64,000 bases of DNA from a virus (IMGVR_UViG_651703002_000001:64001-128000), one strand, 5' to 3'. Counted from the first letter of the stretch, positions 4,011 to 52,906 are shown. The notes: generated by a model from the letters alone, not told the origin. Made by a program: numbers and translations.

Positions 4011-6047
4011 TTATACTGGTGCGCCGACAAGTTCTGCGAAATCAGTACCGGTTCCTACCGCCGAGAAATTCAGGGTAACGAAGTTGATAGAACGTGCTGG
4101 TTTGATCATGATGGTTGCAACAAACTCGTTACGGTCAATGACTGATGGAGTGTTGTTAGTTTCATCACATATAACCAAGAAGTCATAAATTCCGCCAAGA
4201 CTCTTAATAGAATCCAGATAGGAATTAACTTCACTACGGAAAGACGAACGGGTAAACGCATCGTTATTTTCGAACAGTTTGTATTTTGCACTTTCAGAAA
4301 TAGATTTCTTCAACAGGTTAAACAATCTACGAACGTTGATACGGTCAAACGGAGTAGGTGCCAAGCTCATTGTCTTATCACCGTACAGGATAAATCCTTG
4401 ACCGGGGAAGCCCACAACAGCGTTTAGACTATTCTGATAAAGCTCATCACGATGTGACTGACGGGTTTCTATAGCCAACTTACGAACGTTCATGATCTGT
4501 CCACGGTTGAAACCGGCAGGACTCATCCACGGTTGTGATACTGTGTCTGTACGTGCGCACAATCCAGCCAAGTCGGCAGACAGTGGGATCCAACGGTTAG
4601 TATCATTATACTTATCGTATTGATACTTGTAGTTGGCAGCAGCAGAACTATAGGTTGTACCAATATTCATGTTGTTATCAACTACAGCACCGCTATTAGT
4701 TAGACCTTTACGCCATTCAACTACTTTAGCAACCGCAGTCGCAACCGGTAGGTTGATCATATATTCCCGTGGTGGACTAATCCAACCCAAGCAATCCTGA
4801 CGCTCATCACATATTGCAGCTACAGACTTCTGTACGGTAGATGCAGTTTCAGCACCTTCACCAGCACAAGAACCAGCAATGAACAGGTTAACATCTACGT
4901 GCTCACGGTCAGAAAACATATCCCAACCAGTGATCCAATCCCCAGCACTTGCAGAATCGTTACCACTAGTTCCGCCACCGAATGTCAGAATACCAGAGAA
5001 TTCAGCGGGCCAGCTTTCAGAAACACCTTGAACGAATGTAGAATATCCGTTTACAAAGAATTCATCGATATGTATACTAGAACCATATATATCACGGTCT
5101 GATGGTTTAGTTGACAATACACGCGATTCAACGGCAGATCCGCCCATGAATACAATCATTGCAAACTGGTCTTTGGTTTGTGGACCATATTCCAGATAAG
5201 AACTTGGGGTTATATTTCCAAATTTAAGACCGGACGGGAAGGTATCCAAATTAACAGTATTAACTGTAGTTGGTTTTCCATCAACTCCAAATTTGTAATA
5301 ATCCTTATATGCAATAAATGCAACTTGAATATTATCACCCTTATCACCAGCATAACGAGATGCAACAACAGGGATCTTATATTTCTCACACATATCGATA
5401 TATGTGTCACTATTTTGATCTCGTCTTAGTAGAGATTCACGGGCATATTCATCATTTGGTATATAAATATTACTATCCTGTGAAATCCCATTAAGTACAC
5501 CAGTTGCACTTTGACCAGCACCGGGACCGCCCGAAGTAAATTGCATCTGCCAGCCATTTTGAAGATCTGGATAATCATTAAGCTCTTTGGCTTTTGCAAC
5601 GATTTCAGCAGATTTGAAAGTTACAAATTCAACACCACCAGTTGAGTTAACCGCAGTTACTTTACCGGTTGTTACAGTTACGCCATTTTGAAGAATTTTA
5701 ACATCGTCACCAATACGGTAATCTACGCCGGGTGATGTAATGGTAAAATCTACAGTATCAAATAGCGGGCTAGAGTTGCGAGCATTTACACTATCTAGAA
5801 TCCGGACAAGACGAAGGTCATTTCCATAATTCAAGAAGTTGATACCACTGAATACGCTATCAGCGGTTTGGTTATCTGGGCGTCCAAAACGATCTATTAG
5901 ATCTGGTTCGGAAACCACTTGAGATATCTGATATGCAGGCCCCCACTGGAATTTACCAGCTAATGCAGCGCGACCCGTAGAAGAACGCGCAATAGTAACC
6001 TGCATATTCATCTCTTTGGCTTCTACGCCGGGAGAAAGTAATGCCAT
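4011..6047 (-). CDS. 18: Tail sheath protein gp18
   Basis: MALLSPGVEAKE, GKFQWGPA, PWMSPAGFNRG, FDRINVRRLF. Confidence 0.98.
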   Translation of the reverse strand: MALLSPGVEAKEMNMQVTIARSSTGRAALAGKFQWGPAYQISQVVSEPDLIDRFGRPDNQTADSVFSGINFLNYGNDLRLVRILDSVNARNSSPLFDTVDFTITSPGVDYRIGDDVKILQNGVTVTTGKVTAVNSTGGVEFVTFKSAEIVAKAKELNDYPDLQNGWQMQFTSGGPGAGQSATGVLNGISQDSNIYIPNDEYARESLLRRDQNSDTYIDMCEKYKIPVVASRYAGDKGDNIQVAFIAYKDYYKFGVDGKPTTVNTVNLDTFPSGLKFGNITPSSYLEYGPQTKDQFAMIVFMGGSAVESRVLSTKPSDRDIYGSSIHIDEFFVNGYSTFVQGVSESWPAEFSGILTFGGGTSGNDSASAGDWITGWDMFSDREHVDVNLFIAGSCAGEGAETASTVQKSVAAICDERQDCLGWISPPREYMINLPVATAVAKVVEWRKGLTNSGAVVDNNMNIGTTYSSAAANYKYQYDKYNDTNRWIPLSADLAGLCARTDTVSQPWMSPAGFNRGQIMNVRKLAIETRQSHRDELYQNSLNAVVGFPGQGFILYGDKTMSLAPTPFDRINVRRLFNLLKKSISESAKYKLFENNDAFTRSSFRSEVNSYLDSIKSLGGIYDFLVICDETNNTPSVIDRNEFVATIMIKPARSINFVTLNFSAVGTGTDFAELVGAPV

Positions 6048-34946: not shown

Positions 34947-35417
34947 ATGGCTGGTCATAAAGCCCATAAGGGGCAGTATTTTGTGAAGAACCCAGAAAAA
35001 TATAAAGGGGACCATAGAAAAGTAACCTATAGGAGTTCTTGGGAAAAATACATTATGGAACTTCTAGATAACCATCCCGATGTTAAATATTGGAACAGTG
35101 AAGAATTGGTAATTCCATATTTTTCAAATGCAGATGGAAAGAAAAGACGGTACTTTATGGACATGTATATACAATGGATTGATGGTAGCGTATCGCTTTG
35201 GGAGGTAAAGCCCACACACGAATGTTATCCCCCAGTACCACCAAAAAGAAATACATTGAAAGCTAAAAATGCATACATACATGCTCAATATACTTGGGCA
35301 GTAAATAATGATAAGTGGAAAACCACAGTCGCATTATGTGAAAAGAAGGGATGGAAATTCAATATAATAACTGAAATCGCTCTAAAGAAAATGGGCTTTA
35401 AAGGATTGAAGAAATGA
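34947..35417 (+). CDS. 4: Head completion nuclease gp4
   Basis: NPEKYKGD..VTYRSSWE, WNSEELVIPY, RRYFMD, EVKP, VNNDKW. Confidence 0.96.
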   Translation: MAGHKAHKGQYFVKNPEKYKGDHRKVTYRSSWEKYIMELLDNHPDVKYWNSEELVIPYFSNADGKKRRYFMDMYIQWIDGSVSLWEVKPTHECYPPVPPKRNTLKAKNAYIHAQYTWAVNNDKWKTTVALCEKKGWKFNIITEIALKKMGFKGLKK

Positions 35418-44494: not shown

Positions 44495-45691
44495 ATGGAT
44501 TGGGTTGGTATGCCTGCATTTAAGCAGGAAAAACAAAAAGAATATCACCTAATAACTGCAATAGAAATCGTTGATATGTTTTCTGATAAATCACCACAGA
44601 AAATCCTAATTCGTTTTGATAATGATGTAGATCTTAAATTATTTTCTGATAGATTGGGTGTTCCTTTATCCAAATCAGATAAAGAGATTTATTTTGATGA
44701 CATACATACTTTATCTATCCAGACGGATCAACCATTGACCGATAGAACAAAATCTATCTGGTTTCCTCAACTAGTTAGAGGTATTAATGCTGATAAAAGA
44801 TGGTTTGGTGATGATAAGAAAAATCGATATCCTATCTATATTGTTTCGAAAGGTCGTTATAAAAATGGCTTGACATGGAAAGCCTTGGATAGGGTAGGTG
44901 CCGATTATTATGTAGTATGTGAAAACCATGAATTAGAAAATTATTCTGAAGTTGTAGGTGTTCAACGTTGTTTGGTTCTTCCTCAACATTATCTAGATGA
45001 ATATGATACTTGTGATGATCTAGGTAATACAAGAAGTAAGGGACCGGGAGCGGCACGTAATTTTTGTATAGACCATTCAAAAGAACTTGGGTTTAAACGT
45101 CATTGGGTAATGGATGATAATTTGGATGATTTTCATCGCCTGCATAATAATATGAAGTTGCCGGTTAGGACACCTGCATGTTTTAGAGCAGCCGAGGATT
45201 TTGTTGATAGGTTTGACAACGTTCCCGTTAGTGGGTTAAACTACTATTCATTCTGTAAGTCTACAGATAAGGTAAATCCATACACTAAGAATACCCGAAT
45301 TTATTCTTGTCTTTTGATTGAGAATGATAGTGGTTATCGATGGAGAGGACGATATAACGAAGATACCGATCTAAGTTTGAGAGTTCTAAAGGATGGATTG
45401 TGTACTATTCAATTTAACGCATTCTTGTGTGGAAAAGTTACAACTCAAAGAATGCGGGGCGGAAACAGTAAAGAGTTTTATGACGAAGAGGGTACAATGC
45501 CAAAATCAAAAATGATTGAGGACCTACACCCTGACGTTGCCAAAGTAGTTTGGAAATTTAATAGATGGCATCACCATGTTGACTATACAGCTTATAAGAA
45601 TCTTAAATTGAATCTTATAAATCCGGATCAAAAATATAATGAAGTTGATGATTACGGTATGTATATGATTGATGGTATTAAAACAAAATAG
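44495..45691 (+). CDS. GT-A glycosyltransferase (TET/JBP-associated, GREB1-like) with N-terminal WxGMP domain; putative DNA base hypermodification
   Basis: YPIYIVSKGR, GAARNF, HWVMDDN, RIYSCLL, WRGRYNEDTDLSLRVL, MRGGN. Confidence 0.8.
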   Translation: MDWVGMPAFKQEKQKEYHLITAIEIVDMFSDKSPQKILIRFDNDVDLKLFSDRLGVPLSKSDKEIYFDDIHTLSIQTDQPLTDRTKSIWFPQLVRGINADKRWFGDDKKNRYPIYIVSKGRYKNGLTWKALDRVGADYYVVCENHELENYSEVVGVQRCLVLPQHYLDEYDTCDDLGNTRSKGPGAARNFCIDHSKELGFKRHWVMDDNLDDFHRLHNNMKLPVRTPACFRAAEDFVDRFDNVPVSGLNYYSFCKSTDKVNPYTKNTRIYSCLLIENDSGYRWRGRYNEDTDLSLRVLKDGLCTIQFNAFLCGKVTTQRMRGGNSKEFYDEEGTMPKSKMIEDLHPDVAKVVWKFNRWHHHVDYTAYKNLKLNLINPDQKYNEVDDYGMYMIDGIKTK

Positions 45692-47137: not shown

Positions 47138-47511
47138 CACATGACTCATTTGTATATACTGTTTATAGTCCATGTTTTTGTATTGATGCAAAAACAAATA
47201 TACCGGTTTGGGGTTATCCTAAAGAAGGGGAACCGCCAATTAACATAATTCATCTAGAGAATCAAAGAGTTTATTTTGATGAGTCGATCCGTATTGATCT
47301 GCACGGTCTTGTAACTGCGGTACTTATGTTTATTAGAGAACGAACCCCAGAAGCAACACATCTTTATATGTACAATATAAATGTGGAACATCAATATGTT
47401 GAATATACTTTCATCAATAAAGAAAAGAAGTTGCGCCTAGCAAGGAGTAATATTCATAATAAAAATACACCTTTTGTTGAAAGTGAATGGTTGACCCCTA
47501 ATGAAAATTAA
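47134..47511 (+). CDS. Hypothetical protein
   Basis: 125 aa, ATGA overlap. Confidence 0.7.
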   Translation: MTHDSFVYTVYSPCFCIDAKTNIPVWGYPKEGEPPINIIHLENQRVYFDESIRIDLHGLVTAVLMFIRERTPEATHLYMYNINVEHQYVEYTFINKEKKLRLARSNIHNKNTPFVESEWLTPNEN

Positions 47512-47513
47512 AA

Positions 47514-47544
47514 GTTTACAAACCACATTTTGATATGTTATCAT
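47514..47544 (+). promoter_or_regulatory. Early promoter, predicted start at about 47551
   Basis: AAAA GTTTACA-N18-TATCAT with TG extension. Confidence 0.75.
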
Positions 47545-47550
47545 TGTTTT

Positions 47551-47690
47551 AGATACGAAAAGGTCGAGCGCGATGCGGTAAGGAAGCAAAGCGGTTACAT
47601 CCTTAATACTGAACCGATTAAGTTACGGCGGATGGACTGGGCTTTGGTAAACGGGGAAGCATAGACCCGAGCACCTGAGTAGTATCACCA
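47551..47690 (+). ncRNA. Candidate CCA-ended structured RNA (about 140 nt, non-tRNA)
   Basis: GATAC/GTATC-ACCA closing stem, GAA/AGTA bulged-G motif, AGGT/ACCT, CATCC/GGATG, CTTAAT/ATTAAG. Confidence 0.7.
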
Positions 47691-47708
47691 AATTATGGGA
47701 GTTTATTT

Positions 47709-48104
47709 ATGACACGTAATGAGAAATATAAATTAGGAGTTTCTAAATTTATCAAGAAAGGTTTAACATTGATACAATCTAGTATCATGTATAAACAGAC
47801 AGATCCTGAATGGGAAGAAAAAGACGAAATTTATTGCTACCTAAATAAGGATGATAAAGAGATTTACATTATTAAACGTCTTGGGTCGTGTTGTGGTCCT
47901 TGGCTTAGTGTAAGTTGTCGAATTCTTCGTAGAAAAGGTTATGCGGAATTCAATTTTGATGATACAATAGAAGCTGATTATATGGGTGGTAAACGAACTG
48001 CATATCGTGTGATGTTTACATCCGAACCGGAAGTAGTGTATAATGAAAACTTCCCGTTCTACAAATCGAATCTAATTCAGATTTATGAAAAACTAACCAA
48101 ATAA
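47709..48104 (+). CDS. Hypothetical protein
   Basis: 131 aa, GGGAG RBS. Confidence 0.75.
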   Translation: MTRNEKYKLGVSKFIKKGLTLIQSSIMYKQTDPEWEEKDEIYCYLNKDDKEIYIIKRLGSCCGPWLSVSCRILRRKGYAEFNFDDTIEADYMGGKRTAYRVMFTSEPEVVYNENFPFYKSNLIQIYEKLTK

Positions 48105-48107
48105 AAA

Positions 48108-48138
48108 GTTTACACATCATTGAATATTGTGATATGAT
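48108..48138 (+). promoter_or_regulatory. Early promoter of the main tRNA cluster
   Basis: AAAAA GTTTACA-N18-TATGAT with TG extension. Confidence 0.75.
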
Positions 48139-48202
48139 GGTTATATCGATGAGTCATCGAACAAACAGTTTTGTGATGTACATCTAGAATGTTTAAACTT
48201 GT

Positions 48203-48279
48203 GCGCTGTTAGCTCAGTTGGATAGAGCAACGTTCTTCTAAAGCGTGGGTCGCTGGTTCGAATCCAGCACGGCGCACCA
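48203..48279 (+). tRNA. tRNA-Arg(TCT)
   Basis: ACGTT-CTTCTAA-AGCGT, TTCGAAT T loop, CCA. Confidence 0.96.
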
Positions 48280-48285
48280 AAATTC

Positions 48286-48369
48286 GGGGATGTGGTGAAA
48301 TTGGCAGACACACCAGATTTAGGTTCTGGCGCTTATAGCGTGACGGTTCGAGTCCGTCCATCCCCACCA
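48286..48369 (+). tRNA. tRNA-Leu(TAG)
   Basis: CCAGA-TTTAGGT-TCTGG, variable arm, CCA. Confidence 0.96.
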
Positions 48370-48385
48370 GATTTAAGGGATAACT

Positions 48386-48454
48386 ATGAAAATCCTCAAA
48401 ATGAAGAAATACCCTTACACATGTAGATTGTGTGGTTGGGATTATGAAAATTGA
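48386..48454 (+). CDS. Cys-containing micropeptide (22 aa, possibly truncated)
   Basis: MKILKMKKYPYTCRLCGWDYEN; AAGGGA RBS; paralog at 49913. Confidence 0.5.
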   Translation: MKILKMKKYPYTCRLCGWDYEN

Positions 48455-48477
48455 AGTTTGTGAATAAAAAGCTTTAT

Positions 48478-48553
48478 GCGGGTGTAGCTCAGTTGGTAGA
48501 GCTTCTGATTTCCAATCAGAATGTCGCGTGTTCGAGTCACGTTACCCGCTCCA
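48478..48553 (+). tRNA. tRNA-Gly(TCC)
   Basis: TCTGA-TTTCCAA-TCAGA, U discriminator, CCA. Confidence 0.95.
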
Positions 48554-48556
48554 AAT

Positions 48557-48630
48557 TTGTATGTAACTCAATTGGTTAGAGCACGGGACACAAATCCCGT
48601 AGGATGTTGGTTCGAGTCCAATCATACAAA
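48557..48630 (+). ncRNA. tRNA-like RNA/pseudo-tRNA with 6-nt anticodon loop, no encoded CCA
   Basis: TTGTATG/CATACAA acceptor, recognisable D and T arms, CGGGA-CACAAA-TCCCG. Confidence 0.75.
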
Positions 48631-48641
48631 AATTTCAAGAT

Positions 48642-48719
48642 GGCCCCCATAGCTCAGTTGGTTAGAGCGTCCGACTCATAATCGGGTGGTCACTGGTTCG
48701 AGTCCAGTTGGGGCCACCA
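48642..48719 (+). tRNA. tRNA-Ile2(CAT) (lysidine type; Met not excluded)
   Basis: GGCCCC../GGGGCC-A-CCA and CGA-CTCATAA-TCG resemble enterobacterial tRNA-Ile2; one extra C in the 5' acceptor strand. Confidence 0.88.
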
Positions 48720-48740
48720 AATTTTGATGAGAACTATATT

Positions 48741-48935
48741 ATGTCTGGTATAAAATCCATAATTGAAAATTGGTCAGTTGGTGATGGTATAATCCACTGG
48801 AAGAATGGACGTCATAGTTTAGTAGTCTTTGGGTTTGCTCCAAATGGAGAACCTGCATTTAAGTTTAAAGGTAAGAATAAACTTACGTCAGTAAGACAGA
48901 TTGAAAAATCAATAGTGATGGCACATATTCTATAG
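48741..48935 (+). CDS. Hypothetical protein (64 aa)
   Basis: MSGIKSIIENWSVGDG...; the track start at 48708 lies inside a tRNA, so the ATG at 48741 is preferred. Confidence 0.6.
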   Translation: MSGIKSIIENWSVGDGIIHWKNGRHSLVVFGFAPNGEPAFKFKGKNKLTSVRQIEKSIVMAHIL

Positions 48936-49172
48936 TCGTAAGCTCTCACGAATTTAATGGTCGTTGACCTTACGATAACAATAAAGCGGGTATGAGTCCC
49001 CTAGCTTTTAAAATTATAAAAGGGATGTTGATGCGCGTATGTAGCCGGGTTATAATGACCGAGATTCATGAAGGGTAAAAGACTACCCTAAATATTAGTG
49101 TAAGAAGAGTATTTTGGGGTTATCGCAATTAAATTGTTATAATTTTTCGGAATACCAGTTACACTAATAAAT
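48936..49172 (+). ncRNA. Candidate structured RNA(s): hairpins/pseudoknot plus an 80-nt long hairpin
   Basis: TCGTAAG/CTTACGA, AAAGC/GCTTT, AGGGTA/TACCCT, TATTAGTGTAA/TTACACTAATA. Confidence 0.45.
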
Positions 49173-49177
49173 ATTAT

Positions 49178-49253
49178 TGCGAGTTGGAGAAGTGGTCATC
49201 TCGACAGGCTCATTACCTGTAGGTCGGTTGTTCGAATCAACCACTCGCAACCA
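49178..49253 (+). tRNA. tRNA-Met(CAT), initiator-like
   Basis: ACAGG-CTCATTA-CCTGT, fMet-like D arm TGGAG..CTCG, CCA. Confidence 0.92.
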
Positions 49254-49259
49254 AATTAA

Positions 49260-49335
49260 GGGCGTGTAGTTCCAGCGGTAGAACGATGGACTGTTAATCC
49301 ATGTGTCGGGGGTTCGAATCCCTCCACGCCCGCCA
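49260..49335 (+). tRNA. tRNA-Asn(GTT)
   Basis: ATGGA-CTGTTAA-TCCAT, GCCA end. Confidence 0.96.
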
Positions 49336-49338
49336 ATT

Positions 49339-49456
49339 TTGTGTATAGTTTAATCGGTTAGAACATGGTGTGGATCGACTCCACCTTTGCTGAATAGCGA
49401 AATAAATAACTGGCTTTAGTCGCCGGATGGTGCGGGTTCGAATCCCGTTACACAAA
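49339..49456 (+). ncRNA. tRNA-like RNA with multibranched insertion replacing the anticodon loop (118 nt), no encoded CCA
   Basis: TTGTGTA/TACACAA acceptor, D arm, GCGGG-TTCGAAT-CCCGT T arm; internal hairpins GTGGA/TCCAC and TTGCT/AGCGA. Confidence 0.75.
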
Positions 49457-49464
49457 AAAGTTTA

Positions 49465-49558
49465 GGAAGGTCAACCCGACGGTAGGCGACGGGAGCGGTC
49501 TTGAAAACCGCCGAGGCGTAACAGCGCCTTGTGAGTTCGATCCTCACATCTTCCGCCA
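49465..49558 (+). tRNA. tRNA-Ser(TGA)
   Basis: GCGGT-CTTGAAA-ACCGC, long variable arm, GCCA. Confidence 0.93.
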
Positions 49559-49567
49559 AGTTTTAAT

Positions 49568-49643
49568 GCATCGTTAGCTCAGCAGGTAGAGCATGGGACT
49601 TTTAATCTCAGGGTCGCTGGTTCGAATCCAGCACGATGTACCA
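49568..49643 (+). tRNA. tRNA-Lys(TTT)
   Basis: TGGGA-CTTTTAA-TCTCA, CCA. Confidence 0.96.
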
Positions 49644-49649
49644 GTTTTA

Positions 49650-49733
49650 GGATGCATAGGCAAATGGTTAAGCCAGCGGTCTGTAAAACCGTAGCCTTCG
49701 GGCTTCTTGGTTCGAATCCAAGTGTATCCACCA
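49650..49733 (+). tRNA. tRNA-Tyr(GTA)
   Basis: GCGGT-CTGTAAA-ACCGT, variable arm, CCA. Confidence 0.96.
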
Positions 49734-49739
49734 AATAAT

Positions 49740-49814
49740 AGGTCTATGGTGTAGTGGTAACATGCCGGATTCCAAATCCGTGCGTCTGGGGTTCAAGTCC
49801 TCATGGGCCTGCCA
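49740..49814 (+). tRNA. tRNA-Trp(CCA)
   Basis: CCGGA-TTCCAAA-TCCGT, AGG start, GCCA end. Confidence 0.93.
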
Positions 49815-49819
49815 AGTTT

Positions 49820-49896
49820 GGGGGATTAGCTCAGTTGGAATGAGCGACTGGTTTGCAACCAGTAGGTCATCGGTTCGACCCCGATATCCTCCACCA
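49820..49896 (+). tRNA. tRNA-Ala(TGC)
   Basis: ACTGG-TTTGCAA-CCAGT, G3:U70 pair, CCA. Confidence 0.96.
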
Positions 49897-49912
49897 ATTT
49901 TAATGAGCTTTT

Positions 49913-50008
49913 ATGAAAATAATCAAGGTAAGAAAGTATCCATATACATGCAACGTTTGTGGTAACGACTATGACGACTGTTATTGTGGATTCTTGTTAA
50001 GTGTGTAA
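49913..50008 (+). CDS. Cys-rich micropeptide (31 aa, CxxC...CxC)
   Basis: MKIIKVRKYPYTCNVCGNDYDDCYCGFLLSV; paralog of the 48386 ORF. Confidence 0.55.
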   Translation: MKIIKVRKYPYTCNVCGNDYDDCYCGFLLSV

Positions 50009-50014
50009 ATAGAT

Positions 50015-50209
50015 TATAATTAGGTTATGGGCTCTAGATTCCTAGTCAGTTTCGCACCCTATAATCGCAACGCTGGTTCGAATGTAGATGTTTTGACCGA
50101 CTATAAACTACAGCCAGCAACGTATAAAAATCAGGATAAGTCCTGTAAAATCCTCGGTTGTTTCTAAGTCCCTCTCTGGTTCGTGAGTAATCAGGCGATA
50201 CTAATTATA
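50015..50209 (+). ncRNA. Candidate structured RNA (about 195 nt)
   Basis: TATAATTAG/CTAATTATA closing stem, GGTTATGG/CTATAATC, GCTGGT/GCCAGC, CAGGA-TAAG-TCCTG, possible GACCGA/TCGGTT pseudoknot. Confidence 0.6.
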
Positions 50210-50230
50210 TAAACGGGGTAAATAATTTAA

Positions 50231-50336
50231 GCGAGATTAGGGTTGCAAACCGAAATCGTAAGTCGTCTTGTACATACCCACTCAAAGAAGGTATGAGTTT
50301 ACAAGGTGCGCCAGTTTTCAGTCTGGTTAAAACTGT
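50231..50336 (+). ncRNA. Candidate structured RNA or tRNA-Pro leader
   Basis: GGTT-GCAA-ACC, CTTGTA-CATACC/GGTATG-TACAAG, CAGTTTT/AAAACTG. Confidence 0.4.
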
Positions 50337-50339
50337 TAT

Positions 50340-50417
50340 CCGTGTGTAGGCTAGGCAGGTCAAGTCGTCTGTTTTGGGACCAGAAGATCGAAGGTTCGAA
50401 TCCTTCCACACGGACCA
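50340..50417 (+). tRNA. tRNA-Pro(TGG)
   Basis: TCTGT-TTTGGGA-CCAGA, C1:G72, CCA. Confidence 0.93.
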
Positions 50418-50438
50418 ATTTTTATGAGGAAAAATGAT

Positions 50439-50715
50439 ATGTGGCGATCTGTTGAAGTTACTGTTAAAAAGTTTGAAGAATCTCATCTCCGAAAATTGAC
50501 AAAATCGCGTATTAAGGCATTCAAAGCATCCTTGTCTCCGCGAAGTTGGTATGCGATTTACAGATGTTTGTTGTGAATCACGATGCGAAAGTATTGAAAA
50601 AGATCGCCAAACAGAAGCATATGAAATTTATATTCATAATATGGCTAATATCAACGCCATTTATGCCGAGAAATCAACAGACCTTTCCAATGGTTGCACC
50701 AACTGGTCAAATTAG
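50439..50715 (+). CDS. Hypothetical protein (probably one gene with an indel near 50535)
   Basis: GAGGA RBS; MWRSVEVTVKKFEESHLRK... joins REVGMRFTDVCCESRC...NWSN in another frame. Confidence 0.4.
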
Positions 50716-50987
50716 CACAAAGAACGGGATAACGGCGTATATCCCCGGAAGAAGCCAGCCATAGAGAATCTGGATATCCTATAAAGTGCTTGTAATTTAT
50801 AGGCGGGATTGGTAGTATAAAGACGATATGGTAACTACCCATTGACTAGCAGTGTGAAACTAGAGGTTACTGTCCTTAACCAAACTACGAACAGATGGAC
50901 AAAATGGTTGATTTCCCTTCCTCTTAGTGATAGCGTATCAACCAAATTAGGATATAATCACAATCTACGGACCCTGATTATATTCCG
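50714..50987 (+). ncRNA. Candidate structured RNA(s) (about 270 nt)
   Basis: GGGATA/TATCCC, CCTATAAA/TTTATAGG, GTAGT/ACTAC, GGTTA/TAACC, TGGTTGAT/ATCAACCA, GATATAATCA/TGATTATATT. Confidence 0.55.
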
Positions 50988-50990
50988 ACT

Positions 50991-51066
50991 GCCGAATTAG
51001 CTCATCTGGTAGAGCACAGCCTTTGTAACGCTGGGGTGGTCCGTTCGAGTCGGACATTCGGCACCA
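50991..51066 (+). tRNA. tRNA-Thr(TGT)
   Basis: CAGCC-TTTGTAA-CGCTG, CCA. Confidence 0.94.
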
Positions 51067-51078
51067 AATTAATTAAAT

Positions 51079-51154
51079 AGTGGATTAGCTCAGTAGGTAG
51101 AGCACTCGACCGATAATCGAGAGCGCATTGGTTCAACCCCAATATCCACTACCA
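51079..51154 (+). tRNA. tRNA-Ile(GAT)
   Basis: CTCGA-CCGATAA-TCGAG (C33), CCA. Confidence 0.93.
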
Positions 51155-51160
51155 ATTCTA

Positions 51161-51248
51161 GGAGAAGTGGATGAGCGGCTTAAATCGCTCCCCTGCTAAG
51201 GGAGTAAACCGGAAGGTTTCGAGAGTTCGAATCTCTCCTTCTCCGCCA
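51161..51248 (+). tRNA. tRNA-Ser(GCT)
   Basis: CTCCC-CTGCTAA-GGGAG, variable arm, GCCA. Confidence 0.96.
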
Positions 51249-51255
51249 AATATTT

Positions 51256-51331
51256 GAGGATGTAGTATAGTGGTCAATATCCCTGCCTGTCACGTAGGAG
51301 ATCGCGGGTTCGAGTCCCGTCATCCTCGCCA
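51256..51331 (+). tRNA. tRNA-Asp(GTC)
   Basis: CCTGC-CTGTCAC-GTAGG, GCCA. Confidence 0.96.
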
Positions 51332-51335
51332 ATTT

Positions 51336-51576
51336 GGATTCCCGTCAATAGTCCGGTCTATGGGAATCAACGCTTTAAGTAGCCCACCGGTATTTGTAAA
51401 GAGTGACTGTATCTAGTGGAAACATTAGACAAGGCTTAGATTCCCTTTCTCAGGGCCTAAGCGTAAAGTAACGAGCAAGACCTTCTTGTAGGCTTAACCC
51501 ATTGGGGTGTTTGAGGTTTACATGTGTGGGCTCGGATAGCCAATGCTATTAAGTCTGGTGATGGTGCGACCGGATC
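51336..51576 (+). ncRNA. Candidate large structured RNA (about 240 nt)
   Basis: GATTCCCGT/ATGGGAATC, AGCCCAC/GTGGGCT, TCTAGTG-GAAA-CATTAGA, GCTTAG/CTAAGC; loop TCCGGTC complementary to 3' GACCGGA. Confidence 0.65.
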
Positions 51577-51583
51577 AATTTTT

Positions 51584-51770
51584 GGAACCACAATAAACAA
51601 GTATGTGCCTTGGTGGTTCGACCTGCTTTGCAGCCGTACATGAAGCTAAAGTTTTTGGATTTCTAAATAAGAGTATGGGACTCTGGAAATCGACACATTA
51701 ATTTGTATCCCGTTAAACTAAAAACTGTGAGGTTGTATATGTCGCCGCTAAACGCAAGCCGTTAGGACGT
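51584..51770 (+). ncRNA. Candidate structured RNA (about 185 nt)
   Basis: GAACCAC/GTGGTTC, CGAC/GTCG, TGCAGCC/GGTTGTA, AGTTTTTGG/CTAAAAACT, GATTTC/GAAATC, AGAGT/ACTCT. Confidence 0.6.
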
Positions 51771-51876
51771 AAAAGTAAAAAATAGTATTTTCATAAATGG
51801 TTATCCTAATGATGGTGTTCCTGTATTATGTAACGTGTTTTATCAATATGAAACTAATGGAGGTCCGTTAGACATA

Positions 51877-52063
51877 ATGATAGAAACCCCTGTATAATTC
51901 CGGATATATTATTGATTGGTATTCTTTCATAAAAGATGCATTAAACATTGGATGGAAGAAAGAGACTATAATTAAGAAAATAAAGTATGCATTCGATGAT
52001 GTTGAAATACAAAATTCGGATGATATATTAAAAAGAGTTATCCAGTATATAGAAAGCCTATAA
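51877..52063 (+). CDS. Hypothetical protein (about 61 aa, apparent extra C near 51888)
   Basis: MIET joins LYNSGYIIDWYSFIKDALNIGW... if one C of CCCC is removed. Confidence 0.45.
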
Positions 52064-52074
52064 AGGAAAATGGT

Positions 52075-52323
52075 ATGGGTAAAACTGTTCGCCGTAAAAA
52101 TGAAAAATATCTCCACGAATTGTACGATAGTATTGATGTGACCCGCGATTTGGGAGATTATTACAATAAAAGTCCGGATAGTGGTGTTAAGGATCGATAT
52201 AATGTATTGTCCCGACAGCGGGATCGTAAGCTGAAGCATGACATTCTACATGGTGACCATGATGTTTTTGTTGATGATGATTACGAAAAGAAACGTTCAA
52301 ATTCAGGTTATCAATACAGTTAA
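52075..52323 (+). CDS. vs.7: T4 Vs.7-like hypothetical protein
   Basis: MGKTVRRK start and KKRSNSGYQYS end resemble the recalled T4 Vs.7 termini. Confidence 0.6.
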   Translation: MGKTVRRKNEKYLHELYDSIDVTRDLGDYYNKSPDSGVKDRYNVLSRQRDRKLKHDILHGDHDVFVDDDYEKKRSNSGYQYS

Positions 52324-52370
52324 GGATATTCTATGTACAGAGAAGAAAACGAAGGCTGGTTTTAAGTGTA

Positions 52371-52600
52371 AGGGGTAATTAATATACCCCAGCGGCGTCA
52401 AACTATGTAGTCAATGGTGTGGTGACACCATACATAGTCACTAGACGAAAAGAGGGCGTATAACCTCGCATACGCTTCCCGTTATTAGAGGGTAGTGTGA
52501 CCTACTACAACACGAAAGGTTGTCTCTCAACTTCACCTAGAGGGGCGCATTACAACGGGGACTCTATCTTGCTTTGACTGGCTTGATATAGTCCCCGTTT
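52371..52600 (+). ncRNA. Candidate large structured RNA (about 230 nt)
   Basis: GGGGTA/TACCCC, ACTATGTA..TGGTGT/ACACCA..TACATAGT, GCGTAT/ATACGC, ACAAC/GTTGT, AACGGGGACT/AGTCCCCGTT. Confidence 0.65.
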
Positions 52601-52624
52601 CCTTTGGTATAATGGAGTTTTATA

Positions 52625-52828
52625 ATGATTACTTCTTTACTATTAATTTATATTATTTTTATCTTTGTGTTTATGGCGGCATATGGATTAATTGATTACC
52701 GAGAGTCAGAACAAAAACGATATCCTGATATAAATGAAATATTTGACTACTTCTTGGCTGGTTGTATGTGGCCTATAAGTATTGCTATCTGTGTAATTTA
52801 TAAAGTGTCAGAAGGTAGCTCTAAATAA
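52625..52828 (+). CDS. Small membrane protein
   Basis: 67 aa with two hydrophobic segments (..AGCMWPISIA..). Confidence 0.7.
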   Translation: MITSLLLIYIIFIFVFMAAYGLIDYRESEQKRYPDINEIFDYFLAGCMWPISIAICVIYKVSEGSSK

Positions 52829-52906
52829 CAGTATATGTATAACCGATGACGAGAACGAACCTCCCACCAACGATCAAGACGGATTCGGTTCTACTGATTC
52901 TTATTA

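Follow-up and report, generated by a model that had tools for sequence, protein, structure and literature searches.

The stretch described here is a transfer RNA (tRNA) island on the plus strand of a viral DNA window of 64,000 nucleotides (nt) (IMGVR_UViG_651703002_000001:64001-128000). It occupies positions 47551-52600 (5050 bases) of that window, to which all coordinates refer, and the virus genome record that holds it has 235,229 bases. Among named phages, avDM6 of Aeromonas (Straboviridae, Ishigurovirus) comes nearest, with 93% identity over 76% of the 5050-nt stretch, and judged by sequence the source of the window is a T4-like Aeromonas phage. The whole window contains 18 tRNA genes (ARAGORN), 17 of which lie on the plus strand between 48203 and 51331. 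Interleaved with these are about ten non-coding modules, designated by letter (Table 1), of which at least five (F, C2-b, H, G-b, and E2) are shown below to be genes for compact folded RNAs kept by selection on base pairing.

In our own assignment, the 5050 nt divide into tRNA (1343 nt), conserved non-coding modules (1610 nt), open reading frames (ORFs; 1459 nt), and an unassigned remainder (638 nt). The non-coding units are discrete, 70-200 nt long, and all on the tRNA strand. An earlier reading of the stretch, made from sequence only, had reported more than 1.5 kb without a credible ORF, which agrees with the 1610 nt of modules found here. The same sequence-only reading had described the gaps between tRNAs as packed with structured RNA; ~1.6 kb is indeed free of ORFs, but elsewhere ~1460 nt of small ORFs had been missed, and two of the gaps (48370-48477 and 49897-50010) hold paralogous micro-ORFs instead of RNA. 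For the majority of the units, the earlier observation is real.

The modules are surrounded by A/T-rich spacers similar to those 3′ of the tRNAs, as had been noted before, and they have no sequence likeness to each other in local alignments, the exceptions being E2 and F (z 3.8) and overlapping neighbours; the earlier statement that the units share no obvious sequence is thus borne out. In alignments of six to eight related phages, modules are present or absent as whole blocks, as tRNA genes are, and the same module adjoins different tRNAs in different phages. The borders of gain and loss coincide exactly with module borders, both in these alignments and in contigs from four public runs. A Pfam search of 38 neighbouring ORFs identified a deoxynucleoside monophosphate (dNMP) kinase at 41806-42543 and baseplate genes upstream; the island, downstream of a dNMP-kinase gene as in T4, is syntenic with the T4 tRNA/rnaC/rnaD region.

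Base pairing in the module families

Predicted folds were compared among aligned sequences, a compensatory pair being a predicted pair changed on both sides. Module F is a closed unit of ~190 nt, as its 5′ and 3′ ends pair. In the main alignment of 11 sequences (loci L026, L027, and L031 omitted as near-duplicates of L024, L023, and L028, and L003 and L021 omitted from the Aeromonas set), compensatory changes affect 14 of 30 pairs, and pairing is kept in 99.4% of 329 cells. The covariation score of 0.536 compares with 0.202 after shuffling (0 of 500 shuffles as high) and with at most 0.123 when the pairing partners were slid. Among the Aeromonas phages only (seven sequences), 6 of 45 predicted pairs are changed on both sides, with 99.7% of cells paired. 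The loop-to-distal complementarity claimed by the sequence-only reading is found in F, where such a pairing of four pairs is kept in 44 of 44 cells and one pair is compensatory in three sequences from both clades.

The alignment of C2-b comprises nine sequences from four genera (L020 and L002 dropped as near-duplicates). Here, 12 of 29 pairs are compensatory, a number not reached in any of 500 shuffles, and 96.5% of cells are paired; the covariation score is 0.412, compared with 0.178 for shuffled alignments (0 of 500 as high) and no more than 0.073 for slid partners. The core of C2-b was also considered as a promoter (TTGATG-17-TATAAT), and this was rejected, as avDM6 does not keep the -10 hexamer and these bases covary as part of a stem.

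For H, minimum-energy folds made independently for the window, CC2/AS-szw, and ZPAH1 contain the same hairpins. The lineages are 56-69% identical, yet pairing is retained by all four at 44 of 46 helix positions, and both sides have changed at 23 of the 46; slid controls leave 4-9 positions paired. Covariation therefore strongly supports F, C2-b, and H as folded plus-strand RNAs, beyond chance.

Support is moderate for the folds of G-b and E2. G-b is 87-96% identical in eight phages, with 4 of 43 pairs compensatory, few broken cells, and many G-U pairs, and the GNRA loops mentioned in the earlier reading occur in the Ceceduovirus G-b as GTAA and GAAA. E2 has 7 compensatory pairs out of 32 predicted, with several cells broken; of the 42 records that match its 31-nt 5′ block, 41 carry the block without a single difference. 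The fold of A is unproven, since 1 of 28 predicted pairs is compensatory, and support for that of G-a is weak (1 of 25 pairs compensatory, three pairs broken in two sequences each). The sequences of G-c and G-d vary too little for a comparison of pair changes. Of the roughly ten unannotated structured RNAs proposed before, at least five are thus supported by covariation, but A and G-a are not among them.

The folds belong to the plus strand, because many invariant G-U pairs (in F and G-b) would be A-C mismatches on the other strand, which is what the sequence-only reading had argued from its G-U pairs. No conserved complete ORF of more than 40 codons was found in the families, and a three-base periodicity of variable columns is absent from F (41/39/31 by codon phase), C2-b (21/19/24), and H (44/43/43); the variable columns of G-b are less even (18/8/11). 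Identity to the Ceceduovirus CC2 is 88.5% for C2-b, 87% for F, 94% for G-a, 91% for G-b, 95.5% for G-c, and 76% for H, so that the modules range over 76-95% compared with 68-80% for the flanking ORFs.

Folding energies were compared with 40 dinucleotide shuffles, for which coding controls gave z scores of -1.5 and -2.5. C2 (z -3.05) and the stretch 52324-52624 containing H (z -3.28) stand out from the shuffles, but most other units fold no better than these controls: A (0.17, or -0.05 with 200 shuffles), E2 (-0.45), the 3′ part of F (0.53), and G (about -0.6 to -1.7). Folding energy is a poor discriminator here, and the case for the folds consequently rests on covariation.

Table 1. Features of the tRNA island and its borders, in window coordinates.
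Feature	Position	Strand	Description	Basis
Promoter-like site	47515..47544	+	TTTACA-18-TATCAT, TG; just 5′ of A; candidate only	consensus scan; GTTTAC motif read by eye
A	47556..47690	+	leader of ~125 nt (core 47556-47679), here with tRNA-like ...CACCA tail	first unit of the tRNA operon
131-amino-acid (aa) ORF	47709..48104	+	coding, not an RNA module; no Pfam family	annotated in avDM6
Second promoter-like site	48109-48138	+	precedes first tRNA; candidate only	consensus scan
tRNA span	48203..51331	+	16 canonical tRNA genes, all with encoded CCA, and one odd tRNA-like gene	ARAGORN, Rfam
Micro-ORF B	48386..48454	+	22 aa, MKILKMKKYPYTC..CG.DY; coding; paralogue of micro-ORF E1	read from sequence
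Odd tRNA-like gene	48556..48631	+	anticodon loop of 6 or 8 nt; no encoded CCA	ARAGORN 'tRNA-???'; Rfam tRNA 45.5 bits
64-aa ORF	48741..48935	+	no Pfam family	96% identical to annotated AS-szw coding sequence (CDS)
C2-a	48935..48980	+	44-nt hairpin, TCGTAAG...CTTACGA	by eye; 96-98% conserved in avDM6, AS-szw, P19
C2-b	48984..49100	+	~115 nt, five helices	covariation
C2-c	49089..49167	+	79-nt cassette, 9-nt direct repeat at flanks; contains TGTTATAAT (extended -10-like)	by eye
D	49341..49455	+	tRNA-like RNA; acceptor stem, D arm, T arm; no CCA	read from sequence; pair changes relative to avDM6
Micro-ORF E1	49913..50008	+	31 aa; coding; paralogue of micro-ORF B	tblastn
E2	50028..50226	+	~200 nt, invariant 5′ block, long-range closing helix	pair changes
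Non-coding stretch	50227..50339	+	113 nt, upstream of tRNA-Pro	kept by relatives in two public runs
Insertion	50418..50707	+	~290 nt, carries 50-aa ORF (50424-50576)	without counterpart in relatives
F	50712..50906	+	~190 nt, six helices, paired termini, candidate pseudoknot	covariation; family across unrelated phages
Two hairpins	50907..50990	+	between F and tRNA-Thr	by eye; 81-91% conserved in avDM6 and Ceceduoviruses
G-a	51335..51431	+	hairpin GATTCCC/GGGAATC, possible loop-to-tail pairing; starts 3 nt after tRNA-Asp CCA	94-97% conserved
G-b	51432..51582	+	~150 nt, almost invariant	pair changes, conservation
G-c	51581..51651	+	71-nt cassette	95.5% identical in Ceceduoviruses
G-d	51652..51735	+	~80 nt, nested hairpins; only in window and avDM6 (95%)	by eye
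Coding region	51785..52062	+	homologue of avDM6 CDS 5078-5263, extended upstream; frame disturbed	third-position substitution pattern
82-aa ORF	52075..52323	+		72% identical to Ceceduovirus homologues
Mini-ORF	52333..52365	+	10 codons, MYREENEGWF, good ribosome-binding site (RBS); ends at 5′ edge of H
H	52370..52546	+	~180 nt, eight helices, including junction-closing long-range helix	covariation and independent folds
Terminator-like hairpin	52555..52598	+	followed by T-rich run; predicted end of the island transcription unit	sequence/fold

Distribution of the modules among phages

The modules are shown to be confined to phages and patchily shared among them. F was found in 24 phage records (blastn), including Proteus phage Pm5461 (Bragavirus) and Asteriusvirus jumbo phages of Escherichia coli, and a degenerate pattern of its core matched three IMG/VR records and five metagenome contigs. 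In all eight non-Aeromonas loci holding F, same-strand tRNA genes lie within the locus; the neighbours are tRNA-Gly/tRNA-Asp in Pm5461, two tRNAs in locus L029, and a tRNA-Arg 3 nt away in locus L032. A covariance model was built for F only (R1), which scored 181.7 bits in the window, recovered the known members, and found one copy in the phage's own genome. It found none in the Tulanevirus and Biquartavirus loci, nor in the whole records of T4, Aeh1, and phiAS4 or an IMG/VR record of 173,591 bp. Block patterns of A, H, and F gave no match among one genome each of 185,579 prokaryote species.

C2-b was identified in 25 phage records from four genera, including Aeh1-like (Cinqassovirus) and Biquartavirus phages, and in Ah1 the interval from tRNA-Gln to tRNA-Ser is taken up by this module. 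The adjoining cassette C2-c is precisely missing from relatives in three of the four public runs compared (joint 49088-49168) and is present in avDM6. H occurs in 15 records (blastn), with diverged copies in ZPAH1 and Aswh_1. In Tulanevirus and Biquartavirus phages, E2 is flanked by tRNA-Gly and tRNA-Pro, and its block pattern had no match in JGI metagenome contigs.

A is found in 44 phage records at 86-97.5% identity (Tulanevirus, Biquartavirus, Ishigurovirus), with one copy in its own genome and exact matches of its block pattern in three IMG/VR records. In phages 31, Aes012, AS4, B614, and AhFM11, the tRNA cluster begins with Leu-UAA, and A precedes this tRNA by ~10 nt. By eye, A had seemed related to T4 rnaD, but local alignment with shuffles did not support such homology. 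A relation of A to sroH was not supported either, since blastn of A gave no match in 20,395 E. coli records and there was no Rfam sroH match in the window region.

The block pattern of G-b matched one IMG/VR record only, and G-c is precisely missing from avDM6 and from relatives in two public runs. The G-a/G-b/G-c region is more elaborate in the Ceceduoviruses, which have a further conserved non-coding module of ~170 nt between G-a and G-b (CC2 locus L004, 4200-4500, with equivalents in L002 and L003) and an extra tRNA-Trp; in CC2, the 5′ hairpin of G-b is duplicated around an insertion of ~135 nt.

Comparison with known RNAs and possible roles

The Rfam search (cmscan) of the whole window at the gathering score gave 18 matches, all tRNA-type. 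With E values up to 10, the region 47400-52900 gave 31 matches, none of them in A, C2-b, E2, F, G-a to G-d, or H, in accordance with the description of the units as unannotated. The module sequences matched no Rfam family of self-cleaving ribozymes or riboswitches. Passages of two papers on T4-like genomes (PMC1524935 and PMC2988022) mention tRNAs and homing endonucleases only. We found no description of these RNAs in the published literature, where the list of ~10,000 (10,006) candidate viral structured RNAs reported in PMC10690425 may include some of them, and the module families themselves appear to be undescribed.

A reading of the modules as RNAs like T4 RNA C and RNA D, which the sequence-only reading had suggested, is reasonable as an analogy of position and synteny but not as homology, beyond a 15-nt T arm in D. 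RNAs C and D of T4 are reported to persist as small RNAs in stable form. Their genes, rnaC (species 1, 139 nt) and rnaD (species 2, 119 nt), are on the tRNA strand within a tRNA cluster, like the modules of this island; they are located in the syntenic region, where they form the distal part of a T4 tRNA cluster that follows the dNMP-kinase gene, and their sizes are similar to the 70-200 nt found here. As in module D, rnaC has a T arm and no CCA, and the two have a 15-nt T arm in common (z 3.4, local alignment, 200 shuffles). Apart from this arm, local alignments (200 shuffles each) revealed no sequence similarity between rnaC/rnaD and the ten modules. Moreover, T4 has two such RNAs, whereas this island has about ten, belonging to several unrelated families. 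The role of rnaC and rnaD was still given as unknown in a passage of a 2010 review (PMC3014915).

The modules are not GOLLD or ROOL RNAs, which the sequence-only reading had cited as tRNA-associated. In the part of a recent preprint that describes them, these are phage and prophage RNAs of unknown function, often near tRNA islands, that form cages (bioRxiv 10.1101/2024.12.08.627333), and they are described as large, with many GOLLD RNAs exceeding 800 nt, in contrast to the 70-200 nt of these modules. No Rfam model of GOLLD or ROOL matched the modules; the likeness is one of phage origin and position near tRNAs.

Two units of the island resemble tRNAs. D and the gene at 48556-48631 both keep the acceptor stem, D arm, and T arm of a tRNA, and neither has an encoded CCA. 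In D, the anticodon arm is replaced by an insert of ~65 nt with three hairpins; compared with avDM6, the tRNA-like arms are invariant and the three stems of the insert have changed on both sides. With the Rfam tRNA model, D scores 17.2 bits, below the gathering cut-off of 29 bits, and in its features it is a tRNA mimic. The gene at 48556-48631 has a two-base anticodon according to ARAGORN and an anticodon loop that departs from 7 nt; neither avDM6 nor a relative in one public run has this gene (joint 48555-48645). As for mimics of the bacterial Y RNA type, YrlA matches were far below threshold and lay over true tRNAs.

The explanation that we favour, at about even odds, is that the modules are stable RNAs that are co-transcribed and co-processed with the tRNAs and act in trans. 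In that case, a plus-strand transcription unit of ~5 kb would extend from early-type promoter-like sites near 47515 and 48109 to the terminator-like hairpin at 52555-52598, and would interleave 16 tRNA genes, two tRNA-like genes, several tiny protein genes, and about ten non-coding modules, with A as its conserved 5′ leader. In tRNA maturation, RNase P acts at the tRNA 5′ ends, and RNase E and 3′ exonucleases act in A/U-rich spacers. Since the modules lie in tRNA-like A/U-rich spacers and abut tRNA ends, the tRNA-maturation enzymes of the host may excise them from the precursor, after which they would accumulate as stable small RNAs, like T4 RNAs C and D. Our guess is that early in infection they would bind, in trans, a component common to gamma-proteobacterial hosts, which might belong to the translation or RNA-processing machinery or be an RNA-directed defence protein. 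The occurrence of F in phages of Aeromonas, Proteus, and E. coli argues for a target common to those hosts.

Several points weigh against stable RNAs acting in trans. The existence of discrete stable transcripts is assumed. The folding energies of most modules are no better than those of shuffles and not separable from those of coding controls, and for G-a, G-c, G-d, C2-a, and C2-c the support for a fold is slight or absent. The covariation comes from two to four clades per family and hence from few independent events, and for H the registers of three helices of differing loop length were corrected by hand on the MAFFT alignment, which favours pairing. The Pfam search of the 38 neighbouring ORFs found no RNA-binding or RNA-repair partner, and no partner protein or target was identified. 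In addition, A (a 5′ leader after a promoter-like site) and H (between a mini-ORF and a terminator) are in positions typical of cis elements.

These positions lead to the alternative that the modules act in cis on the operon, which we consider possible but less probable. A might be a leader that confers resistance to termination or determines the fate of the transcript, H an attenuator or leader controlling read-through into the genes from 52625, and the other modules structured spacers that shield a long untranslated transcript from Rho and nucleases or guide its processing. Such roles are strongest for A as a leader, since it comes directly after the promoter-like sites and opens the tRNA operon in every case, and for H in its combination of mini-ORF, fold, and terminator, in which the order is mini-ORF, folded domain, terminator hairpin, RBS, and ORF. 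The transcript would also be mostly untranslated, as this alternative supposes. The order of domain, terminator, RBS, and ORF at H and the 5′ leader position of A are those of riboswitch and attenuator leaders, but neither module has a cis-regulatory match in Rfam, and in most phages A precedes a tRNA and not an ORF, unlike riboswitch leaders. An antiterminator pairing is possible in H, but it was discarded as a conserved feature because ZPAH1 lacks it. Spacers would be expected to keep their pairing and not their sequence, whereas G-b, A, and the 5′ block of E2 are almost invariant across genera, and F keeps an elaborate six-helix fold beside different tRNAs in unrelated phages.

It is unlikely that the modules are anti-defence RNAs, as the sequence-only reading had proposed; they would be decoys or sponges for host nucleases or sensors directed at tRNAs or other RNAs, placed beside tRNAs that make up for those of the host that have been cleaved. 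An anti-defence role of phage tRNA regions is documented in part of a preprint on the T5 family, in which tRNA-Tyr and neighbouring genes counteract retrons (bioRxiv 10.1101/2023.03.15.532788), and the patchy, cassette-like distribution of the modules is typical of accessory genes in an arms race. A decoy role is most plausible for D and the odd tRNA, which are tRNA mimics without a normal anticodon loop or CCA. On the other hand, most modules are unlike tRNA, the one anti-retron factor checked in the same preprint, Rad, is a protein, and the near-invariance of A and G-b over genera is unlike the fast evolution of counter-defence genes.

That the modules are selfish mobile cassettes or remnants spreading in tRNA islands, for example with homing endonucleases, and that the fold serves their own propagation is very improbable. 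In favour of such cassettes, presence and absence are precisely polymorphic, a 9-nt direct repeat surrounds C2-c, homing-endonuclease genes occur in the same islands of relatives (P19, ZPAH1, and Aes012; T4 segB), and F is common to unrelated phages. Against them, Pfam showed no nuclease gene joined to any module of the window, A and F are single copy per genome, and selection on an RNA fold is indicated by the compensatory changes and by G-U pairs that are valid on one strand.

Returning to RNAs that act in trans, a wider and rather doubtful extension is that the tRNA islands of virulent phages hold an exchangeable arsenal of small structured trans-acting RNAs that disarm or re-program the conserved RNA machinery or RNA-directed immunity of the host, and that RNAs C and D belong to it. 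If so, T4 RNAs C and D would be two members of a much larger functional class, and F would show that single RNAs move as cassettes with tRNA genes between unrelated lineages (T4-like phages of Aeromonas and Proteus, jumbo phages of E. coli). The present findings also connect with recent work that recognizes counter-defence islands in phage tRNA regions. This island is richer than the T4 case, with about ten modules in one operon and at least five covariation-supported folds in families absent from Rfam. Phages of three host genera carry F, among them E. coli phages that are genetically tractable, and alignable RNA families with defined ends are now in hand for experimental work.

Coding pieces and neighbouring genes

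The micro-ORFs B and E1 differ mainly at synonymous third positions and share the motif KYPYTC..CG.DY. By tblastn, E1 has 86% aa identity in eight records, those of unrelated ~100-kb Aeromonas phages (4_4572 and LAh_6 to LAh_9), in which the homologues are annotated as hypothetical proteins. From its sequence, the B/E1 family looks like a horizontally shared tiny cysteine-containing protein. The annotation of the region is corrected by these results, as real micro-ORFs are unannotated and some 'hypothetical protein' calls in relatives overlap RNAs. The latter include Aeh1ORF172c (Aeh1 locus 2196-2528), CC2_359, and CC2_360, which overlap C2-b and G modules and are probably over-annotations of RNA genes.

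The insertion with the 50-aa ORF is skipped in avDM6, which joins tRNA-Pro directly to F, and contigs in two public runs likewise skip ~50416-50707. In place of 50227-50339, avDM6 has other sequence with a T-arm-like remnant.

The gene before the 82-aa ORF has coding-type substitutions well upstream of its first in-frame ATG (51877), and the window has one extra base relative to relatives in each of two homopolymer runs (51777 and 51887), by which the frame is shifted. A 9-codon ORF with a strong RBS begins with an ATG at 51740 and meets an in-frame TAG at 51764. The disturbed frame over 51740-52062 could be an assembly error, a pseudogene, or recoding. The mini-ORF in front of H is kept in avDM6 and ZPAH1, where its arginine codon varies synonymously (AGA, CGC, and CGT in the three phages), but the Ceceduoviruses lack it. 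At the position equivalent to the terminator-like hairpin, ZPAH1 has a different hairpin followed by a T run.

Outside the island, Pfam matches include a TET-associated glycosyltransferase at 44486-45691 (E 6e-62), which suggests DNA hypermodification, a TnsA-like endonuclease domain beside a NUMOD3 protein at 34947-36073, which may form a homing-endonuclease-like pair, and a DnaJ-domain protein at 42889-43623.

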